From positions 1 to 64,000 of the forward strand of contig KZ538000.1 in NCBI GenBank assembly GCA_000934665.2: a stretch of DNA of 64,000 nt. Direction: 5' to 3'. The notes under the pieces are model-generated. The model was not told the DNA's origin, did not search any database, and worked only from the letters and a program-made list of their open reading frames with translations. Each line of letters opens with the position of its first letter. Within the stretch, counting starts at the first letter, position 1. Positions 6,416 through 30,414 of the stretch are shown piece by piece. The stretch is from Catajapyx aquilonaris. Taxonomy: Eukaryota. The position numbers and the translations under genes were made by a program.

Positions 6416-6572
6416 CAGTAAAACCTCGATTTAACGCTCCCGCATATAACGCTTTCCCGCTTCTAACGCCGATTTTTCCGGTCCCTTGATAATTTCCATA
6501 AGGTAAATTTTCCCGCATATAGCGCTATTTTTGGGCGGTCCCCTTGAAGAGCGTTATATCAAGGTTTTATTG
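6416..6572. mobile_element. pogo/Tigger-type MITE, TA TSD
   Basis: ta|cagtaaaacctcgatttaacgctc ... gagcgttatatcaaggttttattg|ta. Confidence 0.75.
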
Positions 6573-6605
6573 TATATCCTGTGTCTTGGGTTATTTTAGA
6601 TATCC

Positions 6606-6689
6606 ATGGCTTCTGTGGAAACGAAGGAGCTCTTCCTGCAGCAAATCAAGTGGGGATTTGTGAATCAACGCCTTCTGCCAGATATTATG
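6606..6689 (+). CDS. Gene A coding exon 1 (MASVETKELFLQQIKWGFVNQRLLPDIM)
   Basis: ttattttag acceptor 6 nt before the ATG; gtaggc donor at 6690; equivalent to the 29-codon first exon of gene B. Confidence 0.75.
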
Positions 6690-9600
6690 GTAGGCTTCAT
6701 TGGATATTACTATGTTGCGATTTATGATCTGGTAACGATTCACCTGTATAGATGTTACAGGCAAGATGAATGACCATTGTTACCCGCTTCATTCTGGTTC
6801 ATATTATTTTGCTGATTGGGTAACCTAAAGTTGTGTGGATTTTAGAAGTACTAATTCTGCTATTATTTCAGGAGTCATTCAACCGTTCTCGAAATGACCA
6901 CAAGTACGAGATAAATCTCCTCGAAGCTCTGAGTAACTACGAGCCCTGTCAAGGAGAAAATGATATTGACTGCATTATATTGAAAAACCTTGCAGAGTCT
7001 TGTAGTCGTAGGATTTTGGCAGTCCCTTCTCAGGTACTGGTTAGCCTCATGCCTCGAATGCAAAAGGCCTTGACAAAAATCGTAGGCCAACTAAATGACC
7101 GTGTAAGTATCTACTCAAATACCAATGTGTCTGAACAACATATTTTGAGTAAAAAAATGGCTCAATTTTTTTAAACACTTTGTTTATTTGGCTGGGATTT
7201 TGCATGGATATTCCTAATGTGACCTTCACGTTAAAAACTACATACGTATAGAACAGCAATGGCTTCATGGTCTGAAAAGAGCCGTTTGAGAGATGATTAC
7301 TGCTTCAGTATTTTCGCTTGTCACACAGTAGACGACACTTGTGGCTTGAAATACCTGATTTTTTTCTAGCTCTTTTGCTACAAATAAAAATAACATTAGG
7401 TTGTGTCGGGAACACAAGCCAAGGGGGTAATCACTTCGGTACTCCGGTGTACACCTGGGAGTGGTACTCCCTGGTACTCCTCAGGCACCTCACTCTTTAT
7501 TACTCCGTGGTACTCCTTGAATTTGGTACTCCAGTGTACACTTTTCAGTCGAGTGATTACCCTCTTGACACAAGCAGCAGCTTTTGACGTGAGTACGTCT
7601 TTAATCGGATCAGTATTGGGGGGAGTGAATTGATTGCTTATTATCAGTATTGAAGTCTGGACACATGCATGGTGACCCTAAAGTCTGGACACTCATGGTG
7701 ACCCTCCTAAGAATTTCCCTGCATGCCCCCCTGCATGCCCCCGCCATGGGCCCCCCTGCAAGCCCCCGCCATGGGCCCCATGGCAGGGCCCCCTGGCAGG
7801 GTCGTGACTATAACACTCACACGCCACTTAGGATATAGTAGACTCGGATATAATAGCCTGTAACGCTTTTCGTTAACGCTCGAGTTTGCCTCCATGCCCC
7901 CCCTCTATACGGACCCGATTTCAAAGACGTATTCACGTCAAAATCCGAAACTCATTACAATAAATCAACGACCCCAGTTGACATTGGCCATTTTGGCTTC
8001 ATAAATTTGATCTCACACAAACGTAATTAGGGGGTTATTCCAACCCCAACTACCTGTACTGCATGGGACACCACCTGAAGTGCTAGAAATTCGTAGCATT
8101 GAAAACATAAATAAAATTAACATGGGATTATTTCCGCCATCGTCATAAAGCCAAAGTCGACAAAGGCAACTTGAGTAATTTCTGCTTCGAATATGACAAG
8201 GACCTAAGTCCGACAGGAAGTGTGCACCGTCATAATCCAATGTAATTAGGTTGGATAATTTTGCTTCAGGAAGGAATTTGGTGTGAAACAACACGTAAAA
8301 ATATATTTACGTAGATATGCCAATGTAATGATTACTATACACTGGGACGTTGTGGAATATTCCCTCTTTAACTGAAAACCTCAGAGTAACCGTACTTTAA
8401 AAGTTTTTCTGAAATTACATAATTATGCAGTTTTAACCCCAAGGTATCAGTTTTAAGAATAATAACAGTGCAGTTAAATGAAAATGGACCAGCCAGGACT
8501 ATAGATTCCTGTTCAGGTTTCACTTAGTTTCACTTACAATAAGTGGAAAAAACTCCTTTTCCACTTGAAGGTGCCCTAATTTCCATTTTTAAACCGTGCA
8601 AATTTTTATTTCCTATACTGCATGTGGAAATGACGGCGGTTGTAGTGGAAAAAACCGGCCTCACTTCCACTGAAATAAGTGGAAAACTGATTTTTAAGAA
8701 CTTCTGGAAATTCCTGCGACTTTAAATGGAAACCTGTGCGTCCTTTTCACTTATTATAAGTTGACAAATGATAATTTTGTCCACTTTACAAAGTTGAAAC
8801 TGAAGAAGAGTGTAGGCCTACACTTTTACGAAATAATTCAGTTGCAAAAAATCTGCTGCTATATGAAAAAGTCTTATCTATTCGTAGATCAAAAGTATGC
8901 AGCTGAGTGACAGTAACAGTTTCCAACAGGACCACAAAAACCATTTTTGTCCCAACCTCATTAAGAGCCGCTGACAACAGGATATCCCTGGGCGACACAC
9001 TAATGCAAAGCATGCAGCGAAACTTGGGAGTAGCCTACAGGGTGCGATCATAAATCAAATATCAAACATTCACTTCCTTATAAATAATTTAATACACCTG
9101 TTAAAAATGACACTACCCCCGTCTACAGTAGTTTTTTCGTAACAAATGTTTTTTGCTTTCAGGGAACACCAATGTTCGCATGCCAAGTAGCTTTACATCT
9201 CGACGAATTTGAATTCGCGAAACCGAGGGACCGTTGCGATACGAACAAGGACACGTTCATGGCCCTGAGCTCAGCATATAAAAATGCACTTGAGGAACCT
9301 AATAAGGATAACTTCACAAAGGTCAACCTCGCAGTTTTGAACACGTGCCGTTTGCTAGTCATTAGATTATGCTCAAAAACTGCAGAGATGACAACGACAT
9401 GGCTTTTTGCACTGGATACGACCTTTGTCTTGATTGGATTAAGCGTCATCGATCACACCACATTCAGAGCGTTGTATTCGCTATTTGAAAAGGGCCTCAA
9501 TTTGGCAAAAGAGGTCGCTGTTCAAAACCCAGGAAGGATCAGACTTCATGCCTTCCTAGCAGTGGCCATTCCCCGCTGGATGAGCGTTTTACTCATCTCC

Positions 9601-10519
9601 TGCCCCGTGATCGAGAGCGACATGCAGGTTCTCCAAGAGGTCCCCAGCATCCGGGTGAACATTTTCCCTGAAGACGTCCTTGGGAACAGCCATTGGATGC
9701 TGCGTCTTAAGCATGAATGCTTCATCATCGATTCCTGCATCGCGTTCTTCCAGATGTTCAAGCTGGAAGTTCTGCAGGAGTGGACAGCAACTGAACCTAT
9801 AGAATGGATGGTGCCAAATGAGAACCCTGCCCGCACTATTGTCGACAGTATCTTGGGGCATCTCAGTAGTGACAAAGGAGAAGAATTAATGAAGATTCCG
9901 GCGGTGCACCGCCATGTTGTTGGTCTTGTGTCCTGCTTGGTTCTGGTGCGAAAGCCACCTGAACCGACAATTGGCACGGTAGTGATGGACGTTACCATCG
10001 AGATGAACATCCGCGCTTTGGTCACTGACCTCAACTGGCTGCTCTGTGACAAGAACGTAGTTCATGTCATGTGGGGAGAGGTAACAAAGTTTGTATTATC
10101 ATTTACTAGAAGGATCGACTTCTGGCTGAACTTCATTACGCCAGTAAGCGTAATCCATGGTCAGCTGTGGCAACTCATGAGTAAGTACTTGTGATAGGTC
10201 TCACCGAAACGAATCATCGACATAATTACTATATTGTATAACATTACTTCAAGGCCGATTGTTTATACTTGCAGTTGAGATGCTGTCTTTGGCATACACT
10301 GGTGCTTTGAGGAGTGGGGAAGGAGAAATTATCGAGGAGATTCAGCTTTTCAAAGCTATCTACGTGAATAATATGTCTCGATTCAACCAACGAAGCCATA
10401 TGATGGTAAGATTATTCTACCAACACAATAACTTACACTGCAAACTGTATAGGCCTACATAAGATGTTTGTTCTCTGGTTCCGCAGAAGCTTGGCGTTGA
10501 AGCTACATCAAAAGTGTAA
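6606..10519 (+). CDS. Gene A: 5-coding-exon gene, 498-aa uncharacterised, probably helix-rich protein; paralog of gene B
   Basis: Exons 6606-6689, 6872-7102, 9163-10180, 10275-10405 and 10487-10519 join with canonical GT-AG sites (phases 0,0,1,0) into an open 1497-nt frame, MASVETKELF...KLGVEATSKV*. Every exon has a homologous exon in gene B. An acceptor at 6598-6599 implies an upstream non-coding exon. Confidence 0.88.
6872..7102 (+). CDS. Gene A coding exon 2
   Basis: ctaat branch-like site and tttcag acceptor; gtaagt donor at 7103; aligns to gene B exon 2 (RN..LL..LS.Y.P...L..IV.QL). Confidence 0.85.
7420..7567. mobile_element. 148-bp MITE with 8-bp TSD (P- or hAT-type), in gene A intron 2
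   Basis: acacaagc|CAAGGGGGTAATCACT...AGTGATTACCCTCTTG|acacaagc; multiple internal GGTACTCC motifs; second copy at 23085-23232. Confidence 0.88.
7582..7943. mobile_element. Foldback element with TTTTGACGTG termini and GC-rich internal repeats; superfamily unassigned
   Basis: ttttgacgtgagtacgtcttt...cggatcagtat is inverted at atacggacccgatttcaaagacgtattcacgtcaaaa; internal gcatgccccc repeats. Confidence 0.7.
9163..10180 (+). CDS. Gene A coding exon 3 (large exon)
   Basis: tttgctttcag acceptor; contains the 340-aa ORF; gtaagt donor at 10181; clear protein similarity to 28908-29922. Confidence 0.93.
10275..10405 (+). CDS. Gene A coding exon 4
   Basis: ttgcag acceptor, phase 1; gtaaga donor at 10406; AL..G.....E...MSR.N shared with gene B. 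Confidence 0.82.
10487..10519 (+). CDS. Gene A coding exon 5 (KLGVEATSKV*)
   Basis: ttccgcag acceptor, phase 0; TAA at 10517-10519; resembles VLYTGASSRA in gene B. Confidence 0.65.
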   Translation, partial: KLGVEATSKV

Positions 10520-13500
10520 AGTGAGCAACTTCAGAGGGAACAAAAAAAGTCGCAGACTTATGCTGTTATTGAAGTAGTAAAGTAAAATATAGGTAGGTTC
10601 ACATACGGATCGGGATGATATAAATTAGAGAAATGATGATTAAGCACAATTTATTCTCCGTCCGCGTTTTATTCCTCACTGGTGGCTCAGGGAAAAATTA
10701 AATCGGTAGCTAACTGCACGACCTATTTTCTCACAACATGGCATGTTTATCAAAGGTTTAATTATGTATAACATGGCACCTCACGTTACACGATAATTCC
10801 ACTTTTTCAGCTATCATAGTTGAGATGGTTCGTGGTTGTGGAATAATGCATTAGGAAAAATAACGTTCTTGCAATGTATAGTAAAATAGTGTTTTGTTTG
10901 TCTGTCTCCATTAGGCTACTATTGTAGCCTGCTGCAGTAGGCGAAGGAACCGGACAAAAAATTTCATCTCGACTGCACTTTGTATACACACCTTTTTTAG
11001 TAAGCTCTGCAGAATAGGTCTCGGATTTGGGGTTTGTTATGTGCTTGGATACCTTTAGTCAGTTCAATGTAAATCATACTGACATAATTTCTGAAGTAAA
11101 GATGTGCTGGCATTCCAGCTCAACGGCATCTATTTTGTCTAGTATGAGAAAATCACGGTTTTGACTATACCAGTGTATAGTTTAAATATGAAATGTACTG
11201 ATTATATGAGAAGCTTAAGAGTCAGTTAATTCGGAGAGTGCGGAGAACTAGATGATCACATAATTATCGTGAACAACAATGGTGTTTTATCGTCAATAAT
11301 TATTTTGACTATCTTCGAAACCATAAAAATCCTTTCCACGTATTCCCCTGTACCTCATGTTTTGTAAAACAGGAAGTAAGAGGAAGGCTGAAGATTCGCC
11401 GGGGTCAAAGCACTCGACAGCAAGCCATGAGGGATTCCCGATAAAAAACAACCAGGCTGACAACGTACTTTCGCTTCCAGTATTTAGTGTTGATTTTTTT
11501 CCTCCTGCAGTTGGCGTTTTCCTTTGGGTAATAAATATTTGGGTTCCGTGCATTTCCATGTAATGGTTATTTATCGATTCGTTTAGGTCATTATGAGTGC
11601 ATTAACTCTTTTCCACAGTGTAAAATCTTCAATATACGTCATCATTTCCAGAACTAATACCCTATATCCAACAACCACACTCCAACACTATAAATATCGG
11701 AAATTATATTAAGTTTCATAAAGAAGGCTGCTCCATGTGTTACATAAAAGCTGCCAATTTGAAAGACAAAAGCCTGACTCTTTAACATCTTGATTTAATG
11801 AACTTAGCAGCTAAAATAATTATAAAATAGTTCAATTTGAGCCATACGAGAATAATCTATCGAGGTAATCTATTAATATTATACTGTACTGTACAAACTG
11901 AAATTCTTCCATGTAAGGCACATTGATTTTAGTGTTCTGATTGTACGAGTTGTAAGTGATGATAGGAGTAGCATTATTTACAGCCCTGTGTTGTTCAAAT
12001 TAGCGTGTATTTCATCCAGATGGTTGATCTCATTTGCAAATATTTTGATAAATACGTACGAGGCACCTCTTGCATTGCGCATAATATATTTTCCTAAAGC
12101 AGAATAAATTTGTAGTATTTGCGCCACATTTACGAAGCATATAAAAATACTGTAGCATGTCAAATCTAATAATTTTATGCTGCATACCGCAAAATTGGCA
12201 CAAAGCTGTCAGCATTATTATGTGGACTAACTCAGCAAAATAATGAGCTTTTCTGATTTTTTTTGCAAAATATCAAAATAATATCTCTATTGTTTATTAC
12301 GTTCAGAATTTTCTTCCAGCACTTTAAATCTACAATGGTACCAGCACAGTAACGCCTTTTATTTTTCATTTCTACCCGAGGCACTCAGGTAGGCCTACAG
12401 ATGTTGACAGGGTCTGTTTACTATGGGCGTAAATGATCATAGGCCTATTTAATAAGCAACAGTGTCTTCTGAATTGTAGGCTACAGGAGTTCATAAAAAT
12501 CAAAATTGTCTAATATCTTAATTTAGTGGTTATTTAGCTCCTAATGCTTTTCATCCCACCTCAAGAGTTATTCTTCAAAATTCGATACCGTTACCTAAAA
12601 ATGAGATCCTTAGTTCCAAAAATCTTTAACAACTATGGACATTTCTGTTTTTACCCTCGGTTAAAAGTAGCATCCAGTCAGCACCTGGCTATCGGCGGTG
12701 TAAAACTTTTTAAAAAGTGACAGAAAATGAAACTATTCTGCTGTGTTTGTGGCGCAACAGGTACAGGCACAAATATCTTCCTGTTTGCGGCAGAGAAGAA
12801 ACAGTATATTTTAGCCGTGCCTGATGTAACCCATTGCCCCCACGGTTTCATGTTTGACACCTCATGTTTATTTTGGAACATAGTCACCTGAATACTGTAA
12901 ATAACGAAGAATCACAAAATCTGCACTACATTTACATTGTGACTTTTACGCGTGAATAAATTTGCTCTATGAGTCTATGTCTTTAAAAAACTATACCAAA
13001 GCACTGTACACGTCTTACTTCTAAGAATTAGCGAAAAAGAGTTGTGCCAACCATGCGCCCTTAACAATATGTTGGGCAACCTCTATCATAGCTTGTCATT
13101 GTTCCTGGAAACAGGATAAAAGGCAAGAGAATGAATGCTACAGGACCACATTCATTGTTTAGATGTAAAAGAAGAAATAATGAGAAATATCCAGCGTATA
13201 TGTGTGTACTTGCAAGAAGCGTTCCACCCTATAATTATTTACGACAGGATAATGCAACCTGTCCTACCCAAGGAGCTAAACAAAAATAGCTAAAATAATT
13301 TAATCTAGCCGCCAAAAATAACTCCATAGAAATACGTGTTCGACACGCTCAACTATTAGTTACATTTTGAGTGTAATCAGAGTGGTGTAATGGTTCCAAG
13401 TTTGTACATAGTAGGCATTCGGCAGAAGTACCATCGTGAGTCAAAAGATGGAGACAGTTTCGCTCACGAAAAGATCGTGAGTTCCTTGGTGTGCCTGGAG

Positions 13501-14799
13501 CAGCCCTCCGCAACTCATACGATACGGTAGGTGAATATAAAAGTCTCCGTCAGAGGCGCTGGCGCATGCCCACAGAGATGTTGTGGTTGGGGCGGCCGCT
13601 CGCGGCCGCCTGAACCTATCAGAACCATTATTTCCACTGCAGCTGGGCCCGGAAGGAATTCACAGATCGCCAGTCAGCCACCCGAACCACAACATGACTG
13701 TGGGGCTGCGCCAGCGCCAAATTTCAGGCTGGGGGAGACTTTTACTATATCCAACTATCGCAAGAACTACCGTCACCATATGTCTTGGTAGGGAGTTCCG
13801 TGGGGCTGGCCTGGAGATACGGTTAGCCGGAAGTTACTGCATACAGTACCCAACGTCACATCCGAAGACTAATTACAGTACCGGTATATCTAGTGTTTTT
13901 AGTTGCCTCCTAACCTAAATTTCTTCCTAAACCAAACGTGCAGCCGTAGTGTCCATATTATTGTTTTTAAAAATCGTAGCCTACATGTATGGGAGTGATG
14001 TGGAAGGTGTGTCAAATCATAGGCACCCGACAATAATGGGAGTTTTTTGGTGAGTGGCTGGCAAAATTTGAATGTCTGGACCGGTATTTGCCACTTTGAT
14101 TTGGTTTCATCTTGTTTCCTGTTTATATATATCCATGAAGCCCGGGAAAATGCCTCCTCTTATCAGGCAGCAGGGTTCGGTGTAAAGGGTTCGGTGACCG
14201 CAGAAGAATGCTCGCAATCCCCCCACCCCCTCCTCTTTGGGTTAGGCCGTGCATTGTGGGGCATTTAAAGATTATGGCACATTTAATTATTATTATTAAT
14301 TTCTACGCATAAATTTTTTGCGAGGGTTTTGGGAAAGTCCCCATTGTTTTTTCTGCGAGATTCCAGATTTCACCTGGTAACGTTTCGGAGAAAAGGGGGA
14401 CTTGGTAACCGAGGCTCGGCCTCAGGAATTTTTCCGACGAGAGTAGATCATGTTCCAACTAATATCTAGGAAATGACGTAGTCAGGAAAATAATGATAAG
14501 CCTATAAGAAAATATGTGCTTGCTCGGGCGGACATTTGTACATCCCCCCCCCCCACGACCCCCCAGCATGAGGTCACCAGCCTACTTAGTATAGGCACTC
14601 GACACCTTCCCTTTAATCGGAAGGGCAAAAGATCATGGAGAGTTCTTCCGGTCATAGATCCCAAGTGACAGCTCTATCGTAAGATAATAATAGTCGCAGA
14701 GGCAGCTTTTACTGAAAGATATCACGTTCTCGGCGGCGGCGGTGGTGGTGGTGGTTGGAAGGGTTTGCCCCAGTAGGTATGGCCCTCTAGTGTATGTCA

Positions 14800-15030
14800 G
14801 AACCTTGTTAACCGGGGGAAGAGGGNAAAGTATGGGATGGCAAGGTTGGGGAAGAGGGGGAAAAGTATGGGATGGCAAGGTTGGGTTGAAGGGGTTGGGG
14901 GGAGGAGGACTGACCCCGGATGCACTGCAATGGCGAGGCCAGCCCAGAGACGGGGTGGGGCTTCACCACAAGCACAACTTCCGGCCCAGAAATGCGTGTT
15001 AGGTCCGATGAAGACCACTTGAGTAGGCAC
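14800..15030. repeat. GC-rich dispersed repeat, related to 62083-62245; includes a ~35-bp tandem duplication
   Basis: ggggg..gaggag(g)..ctg.ccccgg.tg.actgcaatg...cccag.gacgggg...agaaatgcg.gt.aggtccga is shared with the 62-kb copy; aaagtatgggatggcaaggttggg occurs twice. Confidence 0.65.
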
Positions 15031-16820
15031 CCCAGTCTACCCCGCAAACAGCCGGGCAGGTGATCTGTATCATCCGGGTCAACAGTGGCACCGAGTGATT
15101 TAATTTTATCAAGCTCTCACTGAAAAAATCACGGAACCTGGGTCATGCAGCCGTCTGAGGGCAACTACTTGGTATATGCAACTACATGTACAGTACTTTT
15201 GGCTCTTTAATGTTCTCGATACCGTATTTATTTTTAATAGATTATACTGTATTATCATCATTTGATTACCCCGTGTAGTCTAGGTGTATCTCTTTATTAC
15301 TCACATAATATTTATTACATCAAAAAACACTATTTGTTAAAAAAAATCTCAAAACACAATATCCTAGAAAGACTCATTTCTGCCTCTGGAAGGTTGCCAA
15401 CTTTTGGGGGGAAACCTAACTGCGGGCCTGGCCGGAATGTCATCAGATATGTCCGATTTCGGGAACCTTTCCGATGATTTTCCAGGAATGTTCAGGAATT
15501 TGTTGTTTTGTACAATATATTGTTCTCGCACCATGAGAAATAACAATAGGCTACATAACTTGCGGTCCTTTAATACGGCATTACCCAACAAATAGAGGCA
15601 TGCCAGTAGAAATCGGGTGATTTTGGGACTAAACGGGAAGTATAACGCAGCTATTAATCAGGGTTTTGCCTGATTTTATCTACAAAACATAAGTCAAATG
15701 GAAACTGATTTCTTCTGAGGAGACTAAAAGTGAAGCATTTTACGCAAAAACAGTATGTCATAAAATGTCACTTTTCAGGAGACACAAAAAAATTCTCTGG
15801 TCTTCAAATATAAGGATTTTCACATATCTAAAAAATAATGTCTTATGAACACACTAATGTGGCATATCATGACACGAAGTTCCGATATTTGCAAGTGGTA
15901 GCAAGACTGAGCTAATGTGGTAGTAATTTTGGAAAGATTTTCAGACGGATATTGACATATTATGCAGTTTTTACGTAAAAGGTGGAATGATGATGCATAA
16001 TGTTCCACTTTTCATTATAATTCATAAAAAATCATGATTTTAATTATCAGATAATGCACTTATTGACTCCCATACATCTTCACAGCCACTACTCTTAATA
16101 TTATGATTTCATCTTTCAGTGGCATACGTCACTGATGAGTGTCAGGGTTTGACATTAGTAAGGTGCAAGAATAAGTAATGAAACAACATTGGCACAAAAT
16201 CATTCCTTTCTGGCTACTATTTCATGGTAGTGTACATAAAGGGGAACCAAGAAAAGACTGCGGGGATTAGGTGGGGTTTTCCTACTTTTCAGCCCCCCTC
16301 CCCACCTCCCCAGCCCCTATGCTTACCATGAAGATAAGTAGAGTAGCCAGATGGGGATTTTTTTGTCAACGTGGATATGGGGTATTCCGGGTTCCTTTTG
16401 CGTCTGGCAACTCTCCTTCCAAACCCCCAGAAAACCCAGGTAGTATTTTCTTGGACGGCCTTATAACATGGCACACCATTAGTGTTGTTCTTTTGCTGCC
16501 GGTAAATATAAATATTCCGTTCGGAAAGACTGATCTGCTTATCTTGCATAAGGAGAATTTTGTCCAGATTTTTCCTCCCTTGACAACTGTCCTTTGCATT
16601 GCTACAGAACCATTACCGGCGCAAGGCTTGGAACTGTGATGTGGTGGTCATAACTCATTTTCGACCATGTTTGACATAATTATGTTGTTTTTGCAAAAAA
16701 AAAGGGCTTCAAGTGGTCCCATCAATTAGCGCCCATTCGTGAGAGCTCTATATTCTCCTGTAAATCACTTCACATTTGCAATGAAACTACGGCCCTCCCA
16801 CTACTCTATCAGCAATTTTT

Positions 16821-16854
16821 CATCATCATCATCATCATCATTATTATTATTATT
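16821..16854. repeat. Compound microsatellite (CAT)n(TAT)n
   Basis: Directly visible. Confidence 0.9.
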
Positions 16855-17639
16855 GAGATGAGTTCACACTTGGCCTAATCTAACCTGATATACACTTTTC
16901 TTCTTCAAACAATGCTTTATTTACTTTTATAGTCGGGATAATACCGTAAAACTATCAGAAGGAACATTCCATTGATGCTAACACAATTCGCTAGTTGCAC
17001 CCTCCTTAATGACCCGGCCACTCCCTATTGTATCTACTAAAAGTAAGCAAATATGTCTGATTTTGTTTTGTGAATACCGACACAATTATTCTCCTGTAAT
17101 TGTCCTGAAACAATAGGGCATCAGTAGAATGTGTGGAAACGAGCCAACACTAAACAGTGGCATGACAAATACCTATAATTCCTGGACCTAAGTTTCAATC
17201 GATGTCATCTTGACAGTAGCAAGGTCAGCGTTTCCTTTGAACAGATTATCTTGCCGTTTAGCCTTTGTATAGATTTAGATCACGTTCCTTGTCTTACGAA
17301 TGTACACTAGAAAGGCATTGAATCGTGGGCTTTACCTTCCAGGAGATTAGATTGCAACTCGGTTTGGGACTCAGCTGCTTAAATGCGATTTAAAGGCTTT
17401 ATGGGGAGTATAAGGGAACTATAATGGGGGAGGGGGGGTTATTACTACGTTTGAAAACCTCTAAAATGGCAATTCCAAGTAATTCGTTACTTTTATAGCT
17501 GAAACGTATCCGTTCATTACAGAAAAAAAACATCCATGAAAATATCAGTTACGAAACACTTTCTCTGTGACTGTATTTTTGACCCAAATCGCCAGTGCGC
17601 AGTGTGGTATATAAACATGCCATATTTAATACAGCTTCA

Positions 17640-19773: not shown

Positions 19774-20721
19774 AAATTGTGTTGATTCCCCGTCTTATGA
19801 TACCTGATGATACTTATTGTTTAACAAGTTCTGCTAATTGTTTCCAATGAGGTGTAAGCCCAGATGTATTTTGTATCTAATAGAACTACAATATTTGATT
19901 GAATAATAATTGCTCAAAATTACCCATGCTACACAATATGACGTCTGTTCGGACATGTATTAATACGTATGGATCTCGCACTCTTCATTCGTCTCAATTA
20001 GGTCTAGTGATTACACCCACCATGGTTCATATAAAATAATCTTATGCGAACCATTCCGGTGATCACAGTGCTAATCGGTGATCGCATCGCTCGCCTAGAC
20101 TATCTCGAGACGTGGTCGCAATGACGTGTATATGGAGCCGCAATCACTGTGACCGCGTCTCGAGCGAGCCTGACCCTATTTCGCGAAGAAAGGTCTTCTT
20201 CTGGGCCTTATACTTGTATGATTCAATCTGCCCTGTAGTGGTAGCTGGCGCAGAGTAGCTATAGCTACTCCGATTGTGGTGCAAATTGGGCGTGGGTGCT
20301 CAAGCGAGGTCAGGGGCTACCCAGTATTGGATGTTTAGAATGGGCAGCAAACTTTGAGCATGCTGTTTTCCTCCTGAATCTCGTTTTAGGTTGGTACCCT
20401 TGATTATTCTTGAAGGCCCTGAGCACAGGAGTTCCGCACCTATCTAGGTTTCTATGTTTCTGGTAGCCAGTATAGACCGATACAGTAGTTCATGTCCGAA
20501 TGCAAGAAAAGATGGAAACTGGATACAGATAATTTTAGTTACACAGCAAGGTTACCTGAGTCGATAACTTTTCGTCGATAATTTGGATGACAAGAAGGGC
20601 TACCCTTCACAGCTGGACTATTACTTCTAGGTTATTCAGAGAACGCTATCGGCACGTCTAACTCGATAATTTGCAAATTCCTTTCTGAAGTCAAAAGATT
20701 CATGTAGTAATCATATTATTA

Positions 20722-21624
20722 CAGTTGAATCCGGATATAACAGCCTCGGCTGTAACAGACTTTCGGTTGTAACAGACTCGTAAGGCCAGTCCCGCCATAC
20801 TTCCATAAGGCCGTGTATTTTTACTCCGGATATAACAGACTCATTTTCACCTCACCTCGGGTATAACATACCATTTCTTGGCCCCTCTGTAGGAAAATGT
20901 TGTTTTTGATCCCTCAGCCTCCTTTTCCATGCGCGGAAAGCACTGAATACTGGAGCGGGGTAATTTTCCCACATGTCATTGCCGATAAGGTCAAAATCAT
21001 TCTTTTTCTGATATGTTTGGCAACACCGAGATGGCAGAAAAAAATGACGGATTTTATTTGGTCCTGATTTATTTAAGGGTAGCTAATTTTGCATGTTTGT
21101 GGATATAGTTTCATTAATCAGTATGCAGTATTTTTAAAAAAAATTTACCCCGTGCCAGGCATCAATGGCCTATTTGGGGGGTGGCACACCACCATCAGTT
21201 TTCTCTGTCATTTTTCTTCAGTCACCGGTGCAAGGAGTCAAGGATATAGGGTAGGGGTAGGGATTTTTGGGGAGGGAACATGGGGTGCAAGTGCAATGTC
21301 TACAACATGGGTCATGTGCTGTCCCCCAGGAGGTTAGGTTGCCAGACACCTCCTTGGTGCAGGTCAGAGACCCTCCCGACGCAGGTGAAAGGAAAGTTCC
21401 CCAGGCGGGGATCGAACCTGGGGCCTTTCACTCAGCAAGCCGTGACGTTACCATCACGGCCACCACACCTCCCCATCAGTATGCAGTAGTGTTCATTATA
21501 AGCATACGAAAGCAGACAACTTGTGTATTCGTTGCAAAAGTGGCAATTTGGCTATAACAGACCTCCGGTTATAACAGACTGATTTCCTCGGTCCCTTGAA
21601 GTCTGTTATATCCGGATTCAACTA
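20722..21624. mobile_element. pogo/Tigger-type MITE, TA TSD, hosting a SINE
   Basis: ta|cagttgaatccggatataacag ... ctgttatatccggattcaacta|ta; repeated tataacagac motifs. Confidence 0.8.
21131..21474 (-). mobile_element. tRNA-derived SINE, family 1
   Basis: Minus-strand head GGGGAGGTGTGGTGGCCGTGATGG...GGTTCGATCCCC (A/B boxes); 14-bp TSD atcagtatgcagta at 21117-21130 and 21475-21488. Confidence 0.9.
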
Positions 21625-21957
21625 TATTACATAAACCTAACTATTCCAGACTTCGATGCTAATGTTGGCTTGATATTATTCATTACCGTATTTGACGGCA
21701 TATAAGACGCACCCCATTTCAGCAGGGCATATTCAGGGGGAAAAAAGTTCAGTGTCGTATTTAAGCATGTAATGTTTACAGCAAGTTAGCAGTATATTTT
21801 CCGTGCTAGTGTTTTACCCGAGTTTTTACCATTATTTCCATTCAGTTTCACCTCTTGTGAGTTTATTATTATAATAATAGGGTTTAGTGGACCGCCCTTG
21901 CTGGGCATCTGACACAGTGTACCTGTATATTTTTTTTGTTTTGTTTTTAAAGATGTA

Positions 21958-22122
21958 CAGTACTGGCCAATAATCGAGGCAACGACTAGCGACATTTTCC
22001 CGAAGCGGCAGAAGAAGGAATCGAAGATAAGCATGCTACAAGCCGGGCGAGCAAGATTCCTTCTTCTGCCGCTTCGGGAAAATGTCGCTAGTCGTTGCCT
22101 CGATTATTGGACAGTACGACTG
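21958..22122. mobile_element. Hairpin MITE with ~60-bp near-perfect arms, TA TSD
   Basis: ccaataatcgaggcaacgactagcgacattttcccgaagcggcagaagaaggaatc and its exact reverse complement. Confidence 0.85.
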
Positions 22123-22136
22123 TACAAGCTTGGTCC

Positions 22137-22390
22137 TTTTTCGTAACGCCCGGGTACCACGAGCAAGGGGGGATGAGCGGGGAGGGGATGAGCAATGTGC
22201 AGAATAGTAACGTTGCCTTGGTAATTTTTGTGAACTCCCCCTGTGTGGTTAGTTTAGCGGAAATCCCACCCGAGACGAAGCCCGAGATTACCCCTAACTC
22301 TGCACGAAATGAAGGGGGGAATGCCCGGGCTCGGATCGAACCCGGGCATCCGTGGTCGCATACGTTACCGCAGCGCCACTCCGTCTCCCC
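22137..22390 (-). mobile_element. tRNA-derived SINE, family 2
   Basis: Minus-strand head GGGGAGACGGAGTGGCGCTGCGGTAACG...GGTTCGATCC; homologous to 44486-44802 and 44838-45151. Confidence 0.85.
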
Positions 22391-22803
22391 TCTTTCTTGT
22401 GAGTTGAGGAATATTTAGGTACGATGGGTCGACTGGTACTGACCAACGTCTTCAGTAAACCTACTTTGCTACAATAATTCCTTCTACAGTAATGGTAATA
22501 CAATAATGTCATTTGAGTATTAGGCTAGATAGAAGGGACCGTCTGGGGTCAAATTACAGACTAGGGATATCTCAGCTTCGTATATAAGACGCAGTGAGAT
22601 TTTTTGAGCAGTCTGGGAGGGCGGAGAGTGCGGCTTATATGCCGTGAAATACGGTACTGCGCAAAATTAGACGAGTTGCAGTAAAAAATTGCATTCTTGG
22701 GGAACGGTTTATTGTCAGCGTCATATCCAGAATGTCATTCCCGGAATGGTTGTTACTAAACTCCAGGCAGTTTAATTTGCAGAAATACAAAGAAAAAGGC
22801 TTA

Positions 22804-23042
22804 AGGCCGCTTCACAAACTCGGCGTTGCGAAAGCGGGGCGAAATGCCCGTTTTACAAACCCGGATTTGCGCGAGCGGGGCGTACGGAGAGCGGAAAATT
22901 TGCGAAGGGCTATTCACAAATGCTGCGTGCGATGACCGAGCGCGGGCGTTGCGCTGGCGTCCAATCGGGTGGACTTTCTGCGTGCGATGAGCGTAAGGCC
23001 CACACGCCACGCTTTCGCAACGCCGAGTTTGTGAAGCGGCCT
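22804..23042. mobile_element. PIF/Harbinger-type MITE, 3-bp TTA TSD
   Basis: tta|aggccgcttcacaaactcggcgttgcgaaagcg ... cgctttcgcaacgccgagtttgtgaagcggcct|tta. Confidence 0.85.
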
Positions 23043-23048
23043 TTAGAC

Positions 23049-23571
23049 GGGGAGGTGTGGTGGCCGAGATGGTAACGTCTCGGCCAATGGGGTAACCACT
23101 TCGGTACTCCGGTGTACACATGCGAGTGGTACTCCCAGGTACTCCTTAGGTACCTCACTCTTTATTACTCCTTGGTACTCCTTGAATTTGGTACTCCAAT
23201 GTAGACTTTTCAGTCGAGTGATTACCCCCTTGGTCTCGGCTTGCTAAGCGAAAGGTCCCGGGTTCGATCCCCGCCCGGGAGCTCCCTTTCGCCTGCGTAG
23301 GAGGGTCTCTGGTGCACCATGGAGGTGTCTGGCAAGTGGCAACCTAGCCTCCTGGGGGACTGCACATGACCCATTTTCCGACATTGCACCTGCACCTGCG
23401 TCCCCTCCCTCAAAAAATCCCCTCCCTCAAAAAATCCCCTCCCTCAAAAAATCCCCACCCTTTACCCATGTCCTTTCGTCGATGTTGGAGAAAAAATTAG
23501 AAAAATGGAATTTACAGTGGCTTACCACCCCCTAAAAGAGCACCGTTATCTCCAATGGGGTAAAGTTTTTT
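23049..23571 (+). mobile_element. tRNA-derived SINE, family 1, interrupted by a MITE
   Basis: Same head and body as 21131-21474; TSD aaaaaggcttagac at 23572-23585, with the left copy split by the Harbinger MITE; 17-bp unit repeated three times at about 23403-23455. Confidence 0.88.
23085..23232. mobile_element. 148-bp MITE with 8-bp TSD GTCTCGGC (same family as 7420-7567)
   Basis: gtctcggc at 23077-23084 and 23233-23240; same length and sequence family as the copy in gene A intron 2. Confidence 0.9.
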
Positions 23572-24159
23572 AAAAAGGCTTAGACATCACTTTTTTATGA
23601 CATTAAATATGATCTAATGTAGTACTTCCGGACAGTTGATCGCATATTTAAATGTTCCGACTCAAGTTACATCCCCTTGCAACTTTCCCAGGAAGGCCAG
23701 AGTACAGGGTGAAACAGGAGTATATTCGACCTTCCTGCTTATCTGAGGCCTATGCCCTGCTGACGTGCGACGGGGCGGACTATTTCACTTTTTTTCTCTA
23801 AAATAATCGAATACACATAAAGAGGTGAGATGTGTTGCCTTTGATTTTCTCCTTTCAACATGCAGTTAGACCCTAATAGTGGAGGTTTTCCATATTGCTG
23901 GTTATTATGGGATCTTTCCCAGATCCATACGTAAGCAAAAAAGTGAAGAAAAAAAGGGGAACGTATCATTTCGCCACCTTTGGTTATCTCTTTTAACTTC
24001 CTGTTTGGCTTCCACCACTGGTCATTGCACCAAAGGTCAAAGGCACTTCCGGCATGTATTAGCCATAGGTCATCGACGCTTCCATGTGGTCACTCCGTCA
24101 CACTAGCATTTTCCAATTCCAAATTTAGAGTTTTTTTGTTACAACTTATTTACGATATA

Positions 24160-24388
24160 CAGGGTGTTCCAAATTCGTGGGACTTTTTTATAACTGATAT
24201 TGCTCGATAGTAGTTATTTTTTGTAGCTTCTTGTGCCCCGATACAGTTGCTCCATTACTCCCAGGGGGTCGAATATAGCAGTTGCTATAAAATGGAGCAC
24301 CTGGTTAGGGGCACAGCAAGCTACAAAAAATAACTGCTATCGGGCGATATCAGTTATAATAAAAGACCCACGAATTTGGAACACCCTG
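24160..24388. mobile_element. Tc1/mariner-type hairpin MITE (CAGGGTGTTCC, TA TSD)
   Basis: ~100-bp inverted arms; a related terminus gacccacgaacttggaacaccctgta also occurs at about 62726-62751. Confidence 0.85.
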
Positions 24389-25571
24389 TATATTTTATTT
24401 CTCCGTTCCAAGAAATAAAAAGTTCCAAGAAATAAGGGCGTCCCAGTACATTTAAATGTTCTAGGAAGTAGGTCAAGTTATTAAATGGCTACATCATTAG
24501 GCCCTGCAAAGAATAACGACCTCCGATTTATAAATAGAAGACACGTGTTTACTATTGTTTTCCCCGGTTCTTCCTCAATATCGCACCGGTGCACATATGT
24601 GTACTGGGAACAATGACATCCCATGAACCCGAAGAAGAGATAACAGTCATGTCCTGGATCTTATTACAAGTGCAGCCTGCACAGCGCCATTGCTGGGTGG
24701 TGCATTCGAAGGTGTGGTATCGAGACGAGCAGTTCATCAGAAGATTGGTCCATCACCGCTATCCAAGTAAGTCCACTTTGGCCCCGGGGCGGTGTTTCGG
24801 TGTCACCAAATTCGGGTTTGTGATGGTTTCTTTTGATAGGGATTTACCTGGTGCGGTTATATGTGAGTTTTAGGGATTTTTTTGGTTTCATAACAGAGGT
24901 GCTTTTTTGCGTTAGGCTTCTCAACCTTGCATTAGACCACCGGAAGTTGCAGTGTTGCAGTGTTTTTGACCCTAAGGTTAGCCTCTTCCTGAAATCGGTG
25001 TCCACTTGGGTTCTGAAACCGACCTGAAACTGGTTTCAGGCGGTTTCAGGTTGGTTTCATGTGTACATCTTCAAGGCAAGTGGCTTCCCCCTGGTTTGAG
25101 GCCCAAATTGCTTATGGTGTGATAACGTAGGTTTTTGAGGTAAAATTCCAGTAGGACAATATCTAGCTTGGGTCAATCAGGAATTGAACGCGGTTTCACC
25201 CTGTCTTGCAAAATGACACGCCCAGGTCGCATTTAGGATTGTTGCAACCGGTTGCATTGGGGTCAAAGTGTACGTTCCTGAGGAATCCTAGGTCAGAGGA
25301 TCACAAACTCTTAGTGTGACCTAAGGTAGGAACAGATATTATTCTGGGCAGTAGTAGTCCATTCTTTGCTGTTCCAGCTGTTCCTCTGCCATATCGCATA
25401 CTCTATACGTGTCAAATGACAATAATTATGAAGCCTCTACAGTATCTGTCTATAGTACATGATCCAGTTGCATTGTTCAGATTGTAATTTTGGCACTAAG
25501 CTGCTTGCTTATTGCTAGACAGTTATTTTTCCAAATGGTTAATTTAGGAGCTATTAAAATATGACATGCTA

Positions 25572-25750
25572 CAGTAAAACTCCTCTAAGTTGGACACTCA
25601 CGGTTCCACAAAAAAATGTCCAACATAGAGGGGTGTCCAACTTAGAGAGATAGTTAACATTGATAGGCTTTTCCACTGTTCCGAAAAAAAATGTCCAACA
25701 TAGAGAGGTGTCCAATATATAGGGGTGTCCAACAACAGGGGGTTTTACTG
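25572..25750. mobile_element. pogo/Tigger-type MITE, TA TSD
   Basis: ta|cagtaaaactcct ... agggggttttactg|ta; internal tgtccaac repeats. Confidence 0.8.
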
Positions 25751-25926
25751 TAATATCAAGTCGAATAGATTCCAGCTTTTTGACCACTACAAAGGAGCAC
25801 AACTGCAATAAATGACATCTCCTATTGACATTCTCTGAATTTTTTCACTTCAGGGAATGTCGCCAAGACACGTTTGGGCACTCATAGAATACAAGCATTA
25901 TTGTTATGCTCCTGTTTCAGCTAGCC

Positions 25927-26013
25927 ATGAACGTCCACCGAAGAAGGGCTGCGTTTTTTGAAGAGCGCCTAAGAGCTGGAAGATTGGACATGACTTGGAT
26001 CTCCAGCGTAAAG
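25927..26013 (+). CDS. Gene B coding exon 1 (MNVHRRRAAFFEERLRAGRLDMTWISSVK)
   Basis: cctgtttcag acceptor 6 nt before gccATG, the same spacing as gene A; gtaagt donor at 26014. Confidence 0.78.
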
Positions 26014-28050
26014 GTAAGTCTGTAATTTTTTTGGAATAAACGTAACTGAAGAAAGCTTGTGTTTTGCAGGAAGTGGTGAAGCACACGAGGAACACCAGAT
26101 TCTTCGTAAAGCTGTTGAAGACGTTGAGTACTTATGTGCCTCCCCGACGGGACGAAGACAATCATTTCGCTGTTATCGCGGAGTTAACCAAGAGGATCTG
26201 CAGGAAACTATTGAAAGAGCCGATGGGAATGCCAATGGTCATCCTCCACGAATCTCTGAACAACATTGTGCACCAACTCCATCTGCAGGTGAGATTTTTA
26301 TTTTCATACAGATAGATCATGCTGCCCTCAAAACTGACCCCATAAGTTAATTATTATTACTGTACCCTGAGTACCTATCTGCTGATGATGGGCCTGTAAT
26401 AAGTTACTTACTCACAGTGGGATAGGGTTCTTAGTACACTTGTCCTCAATGAGCAGGGGGTGTCAACCTAACTGTAAGCAGAGTAGTAATCAAAAATTTT
26501 GTATTCCCCGGTTTATTAAAATTCCCCCCCCCCCCCCNCCCCCCCCGATGCCTTTATTTAAAAGATATAACAAATGAATTCATGAAATAAAAAAGTTTTT
26601 GGTCAAAATGACACCATCATGTCGCGAAAAGACTTCATATTTTATTCGATTAGGGCAGTAGAAATGATCTACTTGGAACCACTGCATCCGAGGTCAAGGG
26701 TTGGAGCTGTACACTTTTTATCATCGAAAAAAAAACGTCTCCTTGAACGGCCCTGTCAAGTGGAGGATCCAGGAACTTTTCGGGGGGGTGGGGGGTATAG
26801 GTGGGGCACGCCTCACGTGACTCGATATTATCGATATTAATACTATTATCTACCCGATATTAACGATACCATTTGTCACAATGGCGATTTTTCACTTTAG
26901 TTATCATCTGCTTACTGGAGCGATTTTGACCATTTGTTTCTAATTTTATTTTCCGATTTCATACAGTATATACTTTGACCAGCTGGGGGGGGGGGGCACG
27001 TGCCNCCCCCCCCCCCCCCCCCCATCGCCTCTGGCTCGGTCTGTCCGTCTGCGGATAGGTTTCGCGGCCTAAACCGCAAGAGATAGCGACAGATTCGAAT
27101 TAAGCGTAACCTAAATAGGTTTCATGGTCAACTTCCGGTGACCCGCCACTTCCGGTTTTCCGGGTTCAATCTATCCGCACACCCGCACAAGTCTACTTTT
27201 TGACTTTACGGACGGGTTATCGTTGGATTTCGAAATTATAGTTTCCGTGAATTAATGACCCTGTATGTCGGTGATTTACCAAGTGTATTACCTGGCGCTG
27301 TGGCACAGGGGCCGTGGAATTAATTCCTGACTTTGGACATGGTTGTGATCCTCGGCCGCCATGATGTTATCGCCTAGACGGCCAGACCGATACTGGATCG
27401 ATACGCTGCCTAGGCTAATACATCTCGGTATCGATGTATCGATTCACATGTTCATACTTGAAATAATGAGAAAAGGTCACATCGAATCACGCTCACTTGA
27501 TTTGTCCATCTTGTTACAATCCATACCTCTGGTCAACATGGACGCCTCTATTCAACCTAATATTAGAAGATAATAGGATACTGTTAGAGCTGGAATTATA
27601 ACTATTTTAGAACTGATGTCCGCTTAATAAACAGCTTAGTGCCAAATTTTTAATACGGTGTCTAATACAGGTCTGTATATTAATGTAACACAATCATATT
27701 TTCAGATGCATTAAATGTAACTACAAATATGTACAGTACTTTCGAAAAACAACGCACCTGCACAGTCATAGGGGTAAGCTGGTAAGGTCCAGTTTCCAGG
27801 CAACCCACCTAGAAAGTGTACCTTGCCGAAATTAATGTACAGATACGTTGTTTTTCTACAATACAACAGTATGCTGCATGAAATGTCAACATCTCAAGTA
27901 ACATTCTATTTGTTATGCCAAGACGTGTACTCTAAAGGGCGGTTTTAGTACTACAGTGTAGTTTTAGCCTGAAAGATCTGCCCATAGCGTGATAAGTTGC
28001 TCCGGGACAAAATGACGGAGGCGACCGACCTGACTTACTAATGCTAATCT

Positions 28051-28081
<31 letters not shown>

Positions 28082-30121
28082 TTTGGGATCCCCCTTGAGA
28101 CCAATTGGTCAATGCAGGGGGAGGAGATCTCCTCCATTTTTCTAACTTTACAATCTCACCGGTGCAGGGACAGGGAAGGGATAGGGAGGGAGGAACAAGG
28201 GTGCAGTGCATTGTCCTGTGGTGGGGGCCGTGTGCAGTCCCTCAGGGGGCCAAGCTTAGACACCCCTAGGCGCGGCCGGAAGTCCCCCACCGAACACCGC
28301 GCCTCCTCCAGGGCAGGGAAAGGAAGGAAGCGGCTGTGGCCTATTTAGCGGTACTATCCCGGGATTTCTTTGGGGTGACCTTGGAAAACCACAGAAAACG
28401 AAGGTCAGGACCGCCGGCCTCCGGGACTCGAACCCAGGACCTCCCGATTAGCAGTCGGACACCATATCCACTACACCACTACTGCTTCGGTTACTAATGC
28501 TAATCTACCAATGTGGTTGATGCATGGTGCTTAATAGTTTTTGTCCAGAGATTATCAGAAGGCTGCACTAATGAGTAATGTTTTACTAGAAATTCCTCGC
28601 CCTTTGGCTTATTTTATTAACAAGTGGCTTGTCGCTTAGTTTCTTGCAGTTTCCCAGGGTAACGTTAGTTCTCTGCCCGGCCATTACGTGTCACCTTTTG
28701 ACCCCAGTAGCTGTCCCTTCCCATTTCACAGATATAAGTTCAGTGACACGGGCAAGTATTATGCCACACTCCCACACAATAGCACCTATATGAGAAATCA
28801 CAATTTTATTCGTAGGTCTTCCATTATAATAATGACCTAAGTGACATCCGGTATATTTCGTGCCACTGTATGCCCATCTTGTAAAAATATCTTGTCACCT
28901 TTTACAGGGCAAGATTCGACTAGCCTTCAAGGTAGCTGCGATCCTGCATCATGCCAGATACACCCGCCAGCAGAATTCGCATCCCAAAATCGTGGCCTTG
29001 AATCAACGGTCCCATCTGTTGCTGTCCACACTTTACAAGGCCATTTCCACTCCAGCACAGAACGGAATAACCCCAGCCACGGTGCAAATCATCCGCGTAA
29101 CAACACTCCGATTCTGCTTTGTCTCGCTGCAGTACAACTACCAATGGTTGCAGAAAGTCGATGACACACTGAAAACATGTGTGCTGGGACCCATTGACTA
29201 CCTAACCAATAACTTGATGAACGTTCTTTTTGAGGTGGCTATGTCAGTCTCCGTTCATGTCATAATGATTGACAAACATGACGCAGTGGTGGTTCCATGG
29301 TTGGCCATGGCTATTCCTAAATGGCTGGCCATCATGGCCTTAACCTGTCCTTTTACACACCCTAAAGTACAGATGATGCGCTATTCTATGGCAGTGAGGA
29401 GGGAAATCTTCAGCAACCACCTATTCATCAAATGCGAGATGGATATCCGCTTCAACAAGGAATGCAGCGTGATCGGGGAAATCTTCGAATTTTATTTGCG
29501 GTATGGCCTGGACCAGCTAAGGAGCGTTCTTCGCTACAATCATTTGGTCTGGGAGATACAGGATGATACTCCTGCTTTCGCAATGCTTGATGTCGCTGCT
29601 CGTCACATGAGCATGCCTGCTGGCTCGCATCTTTTGGCCATTCCTGGCGTTCATAGGCAGCTGGTGAAGATGATGACCACCCTCATCGAAGTCTTGACAC
29701 CTTTTACACCAGCAAGAGGCGTTACACAGCTTGAAAGTCGCTTGGAGGTCCGAGTTAGCCGTGTGAACGTTTTGGTGCAGCGAATTGTAGCCGGCAATCT
29801 CAATGATATCAACTGGCCTGATTTTATGACTGCTATCATCAACTTCTGCAAGCGCATTGAGATGTGGCTGGACGCCATTCTGCCGGTAACTGACCAACAT
29901 TTCAAAATCTGGGGAATGATGAGTGAGTATAGAGATTGAATATTAATTGTAACATTGGGTTTATACACGTTTCTGATTTGGCAATTCAATTTTCAGTGCA
30001 TGTTATCAACTGGGCACAGGACAGCGCTTTGAAGAAGGGGGGGATCATTCGCGTGAAGGAGCTCATGGAAATTTCGCGATATTTTTACACAAAGATGTCG
30101 CGTCATAACAGATTCTACTGA
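25927..30121 (+). CDS. Gene B: uncharacterised protein, paralog of gene A; 481 aa as assembled (506 aa, ending at 30265, if a 1-nt deletion in exon 4 is corrected)
   Basis: Exons 25927-26013, 26070-26288, 28908-29922, 29997-30126 and 30197-30265 have GT-AG sites at the same protein positions as gene A. A TGA at 30119-30121 lies 5 nt before the last donor. Confidence 0.85.
26070..26288 (+). CDS. Gene B coding exon 2
   Basis: ttttgcag acceptor after a 56-nt intron; 73 open codons; gtgaga donor at 26289; homologous to gene A exon 2. Confidence 0.85.
28051..28490 (-). mobile_element. tRNA-derived SINE, family 3, with (AAAT)n tail, in gene B intron 2
   Basis: Minus-strand A box TGGTGTAGTGG and B box GGTTCGAGTCC; perfect 16-bp TSD ttactaatgctaatct at 28035-28050 and 28491-28506. 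Confidence 0.92.
28908..29922 (+). CDS. Gene B coding exon 3 (large exon)
   Basis: cttttacag acceptor inside the 359-aa ORF (GKIRLAFKVA vs GTPMFACQVA in gene A); gtgagt donor at 29923, phase 1. Confidence 0.93.
29997..30121 (+). CDS. Gene B coding exon 4 up to the in-frame TGA (exon continues to the donor after 30126)
   Basis: ttttcag acceptor, phase 1; homologous to gene A exon 4; gtaagatt donor at 30127 identical to that of gene A. Confidence 0.8.
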
Positions 30122-30196
30122 GAAATGTAAGATTTTCTTGTCATTTAACATCCCCATCTTTTTAGACTTACATTAATGTTAATCATGTTATTGCAG

Positions 30197-30265
30197 GTTC
30201 TCTACACAGGAGCTTCCAGTCGGGCCTTCAACTGCGAAGCCATCTGTTCTCAGGACATGGATTGA
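30197..30265 (+). CDS. Gene B exon 5 frame (VLYTGASSRAFNCEAICSQDMD*), reached only if the exon-4 frameshift is an error
   Basis: ttgcag acceptor after a 70-nt intron; the phase-0 reading resembles gene A exon 5. Confidence 0.45.
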   Translation, partial: VLYTGASSRAFNCEAICSQDMD

Positions 30266-30414
30266 AGGAAGGGTTTAGTTTTAGTGATTCGGTTGAAAAG
30301 GGAATGTTAATTGTCAAAATGATCATGTTTTACATGCCAAGGGATTCAGCAATGAGAACATTGCAATGTTCATGATATTTCTAATGATATTTAGTCTCAA
30401 CATAGCGGTATTTT

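Follow-up and report, generated by a model that had tools for sequence, protein, structure and literature searches.

A tandem pair of anciently duplicated, multi-exon genes of an unrecognised family in Catajapyx aquilonaris

The first 64,000 nucleotides of contig KZ538000.1 (forward strand; assembly GCA_000934665.2) from Catajapyx aquilonaris, a stretch that we refer to as the window, contain two homologous genes, here designated A and B, that have a common gene structure, derive from an ancient duplication, and have been constrained at the protein level. Gene A (498 amino acids in 5 coding exons, 6606–10519) and gene B (481 amino acids, 25927–30121) are both encoded on the + strand and are separated by 15.4 kb, in agreement with a first-pass annotation of this DNA that had described a tandem, same-strand pair about 15 kb apart. 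We consider the chances about even that A and B are two functional genes of a lineage-restricted family of intracellular, all-alpha proteins, whose most likely role would be that of a non-catalytic scaffold or adaptor. Within this proposal, it is the expression of the genes, the cytosolic location of their products, and the scaffold role that we infer.

Homology, gene structure, and age of the pair

When measured from stop to stop, the two longest open reading frames (ORFs) of the window are located on the + strand at positions 9088–10194 (368 codons) and 28845–29939 (364 codons), with the next longest, of 240 codons, residing inside a tandem array. Comparison by BLASTP of the translations of these two ORFs, which contain the third coding exon of A and B, respectively, revealed 87 identical residues among 361 (24%; 140 bits; E 5e-43). 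Our recount exactly reproduced the 32 identities that had been counted by hand among the 120 residues of an ungapped block, and the motifs that had been listed for the two proteins (LAxAIPxW, CP, RxxxEC, WxxxxxxPA, IPxVHR, and FxxRIxxWLxxIxPVxxxHxxxW) all correspond to invariant columns of the exon-3 alignment. Global alignment extends the similarity to exon 2 (z 7.6, with none of 2000 shuffles as good; BLASTP produced no local alignment for this exon) and to exon 4 (z 4.4, with 2 of 2000 shuffles as good), and exon 1 alone gave no significant signal (z 1.5, with 170 of 2000 shuffles as good). In an alignment of the full-length models, 114 residues are identical, and introns 1–3 occupy the same columns (29, 106, and 449) in phases 0, 0, and 1. 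These are homologous genes with a shared structure, and a chance origin of the open frames and of their similarity is excluded; at the stop frequency of the window, the probability of a 339-codon open frame is about 9e-9. No third copy was detected within the 64-kb window, where the remaining tblastn matches have E values of at least 0.48.

The two gene models were derived from splice signals (Table 1). All introns in both models are of the GT-AG type with pyrimidine-rich acceptors, and the rebuilt exons have precisely the near-equal sizes originally reported for A and B (84/87, 231/219, 1018/1015, and 131/130 nt). The long intron that had been placed at the same position in each gene is intron 2, which is the longest in both (2060 nt in A and 2619 nt in B). 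Approximately 700 nt of intron 2 in gene A represent a repeat insertion, at which read depth rises to as much as 16851 versus 20 for unique sequence; read depth was computed on positions 6400–26399 only, with exons 3 and 4 of gene B (28908–30126) falling outside this interval. A 150-nt interspersed repeat copy residing in this same intron (7418–7567) is 92.7% identical to another copy at 23083–23232.

Table 1. Positions of the features of genes A and B in the window
Feature	Positions	Strand	Remarks
Gene A, acceptor-like AG (6598–6599) and 6 nt before ATG	6598–6605	+	In-frame TAG containing the AG just upstream
Gene A, coding exon 1	6606–6689	+	84 nt; ATG at 6606; donor GTAGGC
Gene A, coding exon 2	6872–7102	+	231 nt; both ends phase 0
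Gene A, coding exon 3	9163–10180	+	1018 nt, 339 codons + 1; carries all shared motifs
Gene A, coding exon 4	10275–10405	+	131 nt; start phase 1, end phase 0
Gene A, coding exon 5	10487–10519	+	33 nt including stop TAA
Gene B, acceptor-like AG (25919–25920) and 6 nt before ATG	25919–25926	+	
Gene B, coding exon 1	25927–26013	+	87 nt
Gene B, coding exon 2	26070–26288	+	219 nt
Gene B, coding exon 3	28908–29922	+	1015 nt, 338 codons + 1
Gene B, exon 4	29997–30126	+	130 nt; TGA at 30119–30121; donor GTAAGA at 30127; coding part ends at 30121
Gene B, exon 5 of the first-pass annotation	30197–30265	+	Good acceptor; out of frame with the 130-nt exon 4

An acceptor-like YAG sequence (where Y is a pyrimidine) associated with at least 8 pyrimidines in 12 positions is located exactly 6 nt before the ATG of each gene, as the earlier description of a 6-nt gap between acceptor and start codon had indicated. 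Such sites make up 0.59% of window positions, and the chance that both genes would carry one at this offset is approximately 3.5e-5. This shared acceptor implies the existence of an upstream exon, whose position was not located and which in each gene is probably a 5′-untranslated region (UTR) exon.

At the opposite end, the correspondence between the genes is less complete. Four common intron positions with phases 0, 0, 1, and 0 had been proposed; these are indeed the phases of gene A, and the first three (0, 0, 1) hold for both genes, whereas the fourth junction of B does not conform and would be in phase 2. Exon 4 of B is one base shorter than that of A (130 versus 131 nt), and the B frame stops at a TGA situated 5 nt before a donor that matches the fourth donor of A. 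The segment spanning 30197–30265 has a single open frame, frame 0; a 131-nt exon 4 would lead into it, but the B frame does not. The proposal that B extends through a fifth exon to position 30265 is therefore not sustained by the assembled sequence, whose frame ends at 30121.

Over 334 aligned codons, the proportion of synonymous differences (pS) between A and B is 0.80, which is at saturation, and that of nonsynonymous differences (pN) is 0.544. Because silent sites are saturated, the duplication must be ancient, as had been supposed. Nucleotide identity at codon positions 1, 2, and 3 is 0.35, 0.55, and 0.29, and this peak at the second position reveals selection acting on the protein rather than on the DNA. 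The purifying selection suggested previously is also borne out by the residues that are best conserved, namely Trp (6 of 9) and Pro (8 of 16), and by base composition. The guanine-plus-cytosine (GC) contents at the three codon positions are 0.51, 0.36, and 0.575 in A and 0.515, 0.35, and 0.586 in B, compared with 0.41 for the window and 0.405 and 0.444 for the long introns. With third-position GC (GC3) near 0.58 against a background of 0.41, the third positions have not decayed in either copy. These sequence patterns indicate that each copy persisted as a coding gene throughout the period since the duplication, or through most of it, with a recent loss of function possible, above all for B.

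ORFs also run antisense to exon 3 in both genes (9549–10061, 171 codons, and 29520–29942, 141 codons, both on the − strand). These show no conservation between A and B (E 74), and the GC-rich third positions probably account for their presence. In DNA run X1, the exons of gene A and exons 1 and 2 of gene B have the depth of unique sequence, about 20, and repeats near the genes reach depths of 1000–99000; this single-copy depth indicates that A and B are not a transposable element. The five sequencing runs identified comprise four DNA runs from a single study, with no RNA run among them, and a fifth of unknown kind (X5), which covers only the repeats between positions 6400 and 26399 and none of the exons there.

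Relatives and predicted character of the proteins

Neither of the exon-3 proteins matched any Pfam family at E≤1. The best NCBIfam match (E 0.024) scored 14 bits, where the cutoff is 215, the best match in PHROGs had an E value of 0.074, and PADLOC returned none. Profile comparison with PDB sequences gave E values of at least 0.11, and the similarity involved no more than 40 residues of dynamin-1-like protein (E 0.11–0.2; 4 of 177,635 distinct PDB sequences). A HMMER profile search yielded none of 1,835,955,588 representative proteins at E≤0.001, and word-seeded protein searches yielded none of 1466 candidates at E≤0.001 and none of 3638 at E≤10. Pattern matches obtained from metagenome contigs (245 and 131 in two scans), viral contigs (123), and prokaryote genome contigs (26) included none that could be confirmed. 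In a protein-language-model atlas, the scores of A (0.76; recognition 1831) and B (0.79; recognition 1921) fall within the range that shuffled proteins give, and the neighbors of A, at 0.76, are unrelated, unnamed fungal clusters. Literature searches, for a family that has no name to search by, retrieved only papers of a general kind, on orphan genes (e.g., PMC11662153 and PMC12755737) and on intron positions.

These profile and sequence searches, together with the fold searches described below, gave no confident match, and the family remains unrecognised, as the first-pass annotation had proposed. Its suggestion of a lineage-restricted family likewise fits every negative search, within the content of those collections, where neither gene has a detectable homolog outside its lineage; the searches did not extend to the genomes of this organism and its close relatives. 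The proteins of the window are themselves absent from the searched collections, and the proteome of this organism is thus evidently unrepresented there. Given the mutual match of A and B at E 5e-43, however, any organism that had inherited either of the genes after their duplication should have been detectable if its proteins were present.

Little-studied eukaryotes commonly contain lineage-restricted genes that lack known relatives. A typical young orphan gene is short and made up of few exons, and its product is often disordered. A and B resemble orphan gene families in their lack of a detectable homolog and in their location within a repeat-rich region that has no recognisable gene, but they differ from young orphans in their length (about 490 amino acids), their 5–6 exons, their predicted order, and their saturated silent sites. 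With a divergence between A and B that exceeds the saturation of silent sites, the family must be old, and sparse sampling or fast divergence is a more likely source of its orphan status than de novo birth. If expressed, the pair would represent a family of proteins of about 490 residues that is recognised neither by Pfam and PDB sequences nor among 1.84 billion representative proteins or in the protein-language-model atlas. Size, multi-exon structure, and age are less usual for an orphan and point to an old family whose lineage is under-sampled rather than to a young de novo gene. Families of this type mark gaps in genome annotation and structure prediction, and are candidates for lineage-specific biology. 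As there is no pointer to a particular process, the value of this pair lies mainly in the annotation record and as a target for better sampled analysis.

AlphaFold2 models of the exon-3 proteins, each computed with the two-sequence alignment, are entirely helical and have nearly equal helix boundaries. Their predicted local distance difference test (pLDDT) scores are 46.0 for A and 48.1 for B, and their predicted template modeling (pTM) scores are 0.49 and 0.51. The helical fold suggested by the first-pass annotation is therefore what both models predict. Spacing of the conserved positions provides a weak helical signal (z 1.9 at lag 3, 1.6 at lag 4, and −2.5 at lag 2). A signal peptide is not apparent in the exon-1 peptides, as had been noted, since these are not hydrophobic (maximum 10-residue Kyte-Doolittle means of 0.59 for A and 0.38 for B).

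By the reading that we favor, the family would be restricted to the poorly sampled lineage of this organism, or would at least be undetectable outside it. Its members would be intracellular, having neither a signal peptide nor a set of membrane helices, and would consist almost wholly of alpha-helix, the 339 exon-3 residues being predicted to form roughly 14–16 helices. A core would be formed by LAxAIPxW...CP, RxxxEC, IPxVHR, and the C-terminal FxxRIxxWLxxIxPVxxxHxxxW, and the proteins would most likely act as non-catalytic helical scaffolds or adaptors that bind other proteins through this conserved core and the surface. Several points weigh against such an assignment. The confidence of both models is low, such that the predicted fold and the scaffold role built on it are weakly founded. 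Six conserved Cys and His residues, along with several Asp, Glu, and Arg residues, would also be compatible with an active site or with the binding of a metal. The apparent restriction of the family may in part be an effect of sampling. In addition, gene B is without the last 17 residues of the gene A model, and the one-base difference in its exon 4 may be a recent frameshift. Finally, selection is seen on a long time scale only, and a recently dead copy would still exhibit the old pattern of A-B divergence.

Among the alternatives, the one that retains the most weight, while in our estimation still unlikely, is that A and B belong to a known alpha-solenoid superfamily (ARM/HEAT-like, VPS35-like, PCI/eIF3-like, or importin-like) but have diverged so far that their sequence signal falls below HMMER detection. 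Alpha-solenoid scaffolds such as ARM/HEAT proteins, the C-terminal region of VPS35, the PCI subunits of eIF3, and the importin-beta family are soluble, all-helical, and several hundred residues long, as A and B are predicted to be, and the low-confidence models of A and B have the appearance of stacked helical hairpins. Foldseek identified ARM-type and designed helical repeats as the best matches (E 0.021 for A and 0.075 for B). Nothing reached E≤0.001 in this search, however, and these are generic helical or alpha-solenoid matches that fall below the noise level of the tool for helical models. Both pLDDT values are below 50. The atlas places B nearest to two long helical eukaryotic domains, DHC_N1 (PF08385) and WASH-4_N (PF14745), but the scores of 0.78–0.79 are in the shuffled range, recognition is below the mark, and Pfam gives no match to either domain at E≤1. 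The tandem repeats of about 40–50 residues by which profiles recognise ARM/HEAT proteins were not found in A or B: no Pfam repeat family matches at E≤1, and comparison of N-half and C-half profiles by hhalign detected no internal repeat (probability 0.2%, E 0.33). The helical-repeat scaffold that the first-pass annotation had entertained thus lacks support from the sequence, and membership in a solenoid superfamily is not shown. A relationship to dynamin-like proteins is similarly unsupported, since the matching stretch is confined to 40 residues and Pfam detects no GTPase domain. The germline or immunity role previously raised for such a scaffold finds no backing either, as there is no defense-family match in PADLOC and no recognisable neighboring gene.

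A rather unlikely alternative is that the pair represents an undescribed old eukaryotic family with an all-alpha fold of its own and a core bearing Cys and His residues, in which an acidic and a basic paralog would assemble as a heteromer in some lineage-specific process. Gene A encodes a slightly acidic protein (50 Lys plus Arg versus 56 Asp plus Glu) and gene B a clearly basic one (62 versus 38), and the corresponding values for exon 3 are 31/37 and 35/25. Complex prediction with the two exon-3 proteins produced scores of 0.00 and 0.00, with the folds themselves being uncertain, and so speaks neither for nor against binding of A to B.

There is only a small chance, in our view, that A and B are all-alpha enzymes or metal-binding proteins that operate through their invariant Cys, His, Asp, and Glu residues. 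The invariant positions (in the exon-3 numbering of A) include C70, C147, C186, H233, H249, H332, D85, D97, E109, E185, D228, and E280. At an overall identity of 25%, 3 of the 9 Cys, 3 of the 10 His, and 6 of the 16 Arg residues of A are invariant, and invariant residues occur inside the sharpest motifs (CP, RxxxEC, IPxVHR, and PVxxxH). Nevertheless, no catalytic family was matched in Pfam, NCBIfam, or PDB, and with two sequences a few invariant polar residues are expected by chance. To our knowledge, the spacing of these residues corresponds to none of the established metal motifs (HExxH, DDxxD, HD, or CxxC).

The end of gene B and the weaker alternatives

The possibility that one or both genes are non-functional, either as unexpressed relics or as a recent pseudogene, is likewise assigned a low probability, and would apply more readily to B. 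It draws on the manner in which B ends, with its frame closing 5 nt ahead of a donor that is still intact, its exon 4 being 1 nt shorter, and the next exon staying open solely in the frame expected from a 131-nt exon. Moreover, no canonical poly(A) signal follows gene B until position 32043. On the other hand, the 481 codons of B contain no internal stop or frameshift, its splice sites are intact, its GC3 of 0.586 has not decayed to the 0.41 background, and the truncation removes only a poorly conserved tail. More generally, the two genes do not carry the marks of pseudogenes, as the frames are intact (498 and 481 codons), the introns have been kept, and GC3 is high, the exception being the possibly shortened C-terminus of B.

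Three causes could account for this C-terminus. It could be a real, short terminus followed by an intron in the 3′ UTR, it could result from a recent one-base deletion in the last 15 nt or so of exon 4, past the conserved MSRxN, or it could reflect an assembly error at this exon. The segment at 30197–30265 would be either a 3′-UTR exon or the former coding end of B. Exon 4 of B includes a run of 7 G residues at 30037. Elsewhere in the window, a single N is present inside long G or C homopolymers at 14826, 26538, 27005, and 48299, two of these being in intron 2 of gene B, which indicates that the assembly is uncertain at homopolymers and bears on the one-base question in exon 4. Short runs of N are also found at 39989–40007, 47733–47768, and 61943–62082. 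Approximately 290 nt past the stop codon of B, a tandem repeat with a 117-bp unit extends from 30414 to 31086 (5.9 copies, 88% matches).

It is very improbable that the helix carrying LAxAIPxW...CP associates with a membrane, whether as one anchor or by forming a re-entrant hairpin. A and B have just one hydrophobic 19-residue window in common, which falls on this motif, the best conserved of all; it is the most hydrophobic such window in A and the second most hydrophobic in B (Kyte-Doolittle means of 1.86 and 1.85, where the usual mark is 1.6). Even so, an invariant Pro and a conserved basic residue (Arg or Lys) are located in the middle of the segment, a signal peptide is lacking, A and B have none of their other hydrophobic windows in common, and a buried core helix would give the same signal. 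We therefore read the segment as a buried core helix and regard a membrane anchor as a lesser alternative.

Scarcely any probability attaches to an arrangement in which A and B are modules of one transcription unit, with the exon-4 donor of A spliced to the acceptor that precedes the ATG of B. The product would be a protein of two modules, and the 6 nt with the ATG of B would mark a junction inside it. The phases are compatible (0/0), the 6 nt between acceptor and ATG are open in both genes, and the identical placement of an acceptor in the two genes requires some upstream exon. Gene A, however, has a terminal exon of its own with a stop codon, and an ATTAAA (at 10697) 178 nt downstream of it; 15.4 kb of repeat-rich DNA separate the genes; compatible phases are expected by chance in 1 case out of 3; and a conserved 5′-UTR intron explains the acceptor more simply. 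Three other candidates were rejected, namely a transposable-element gene (disfavored by single-copy depth and introns), a viral insertion (the genes contain introns), and a tandem family of the seven-transmembrane chemoreceptor type, which would need seven helices where A and B share one hydrophobic 19-residue window.

Surroundings of the genes in the window

The window is eukaryotic-looking in composition, with a GC content of 0.35–0.49 per 2 kb, and contains many interspersed and tandem repeats. Besides A and B, it contains no other recognisable protein gene. Among 143 stop-to-stop ORFs of at least 75 amino acids, Pfam produced five matches with E values of 0.0047–0.0092, all of them below the curated cutoffs, and none at E≤0.001 was obtained for the 224 ORFs of 55–74 amino acids. 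When the window was scanned with the codon usage of A and B, a criterion that is circular for these two genes, no other strong segment emerged.

The interval between A and B consists largely of repeats, and many of its bins have depths of 250 to 99,000 in run X1. Interspersed repeat copies, some of them with a tRNA-like box, were located at 21260–21446 and 22147–22391, in addition to the two at 7418–7567 and 23083–23232 mentioned above, and such copies reach depths of 1000 to 99,000 in this run compared with about 20 for unique sequence. Farther downstream, a tandem array with units of 134–135 bp (and a double unit of 264 bp) occupies positions 41289–42761; it holds the third-longest ORFs (224–240 codons), for which there is no real Pfam match. 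The only Rfam match of the window is a tRNA-Val gene (anticodon AAC) on the − strand at 35976–36047, with a score of 55.7 bits.

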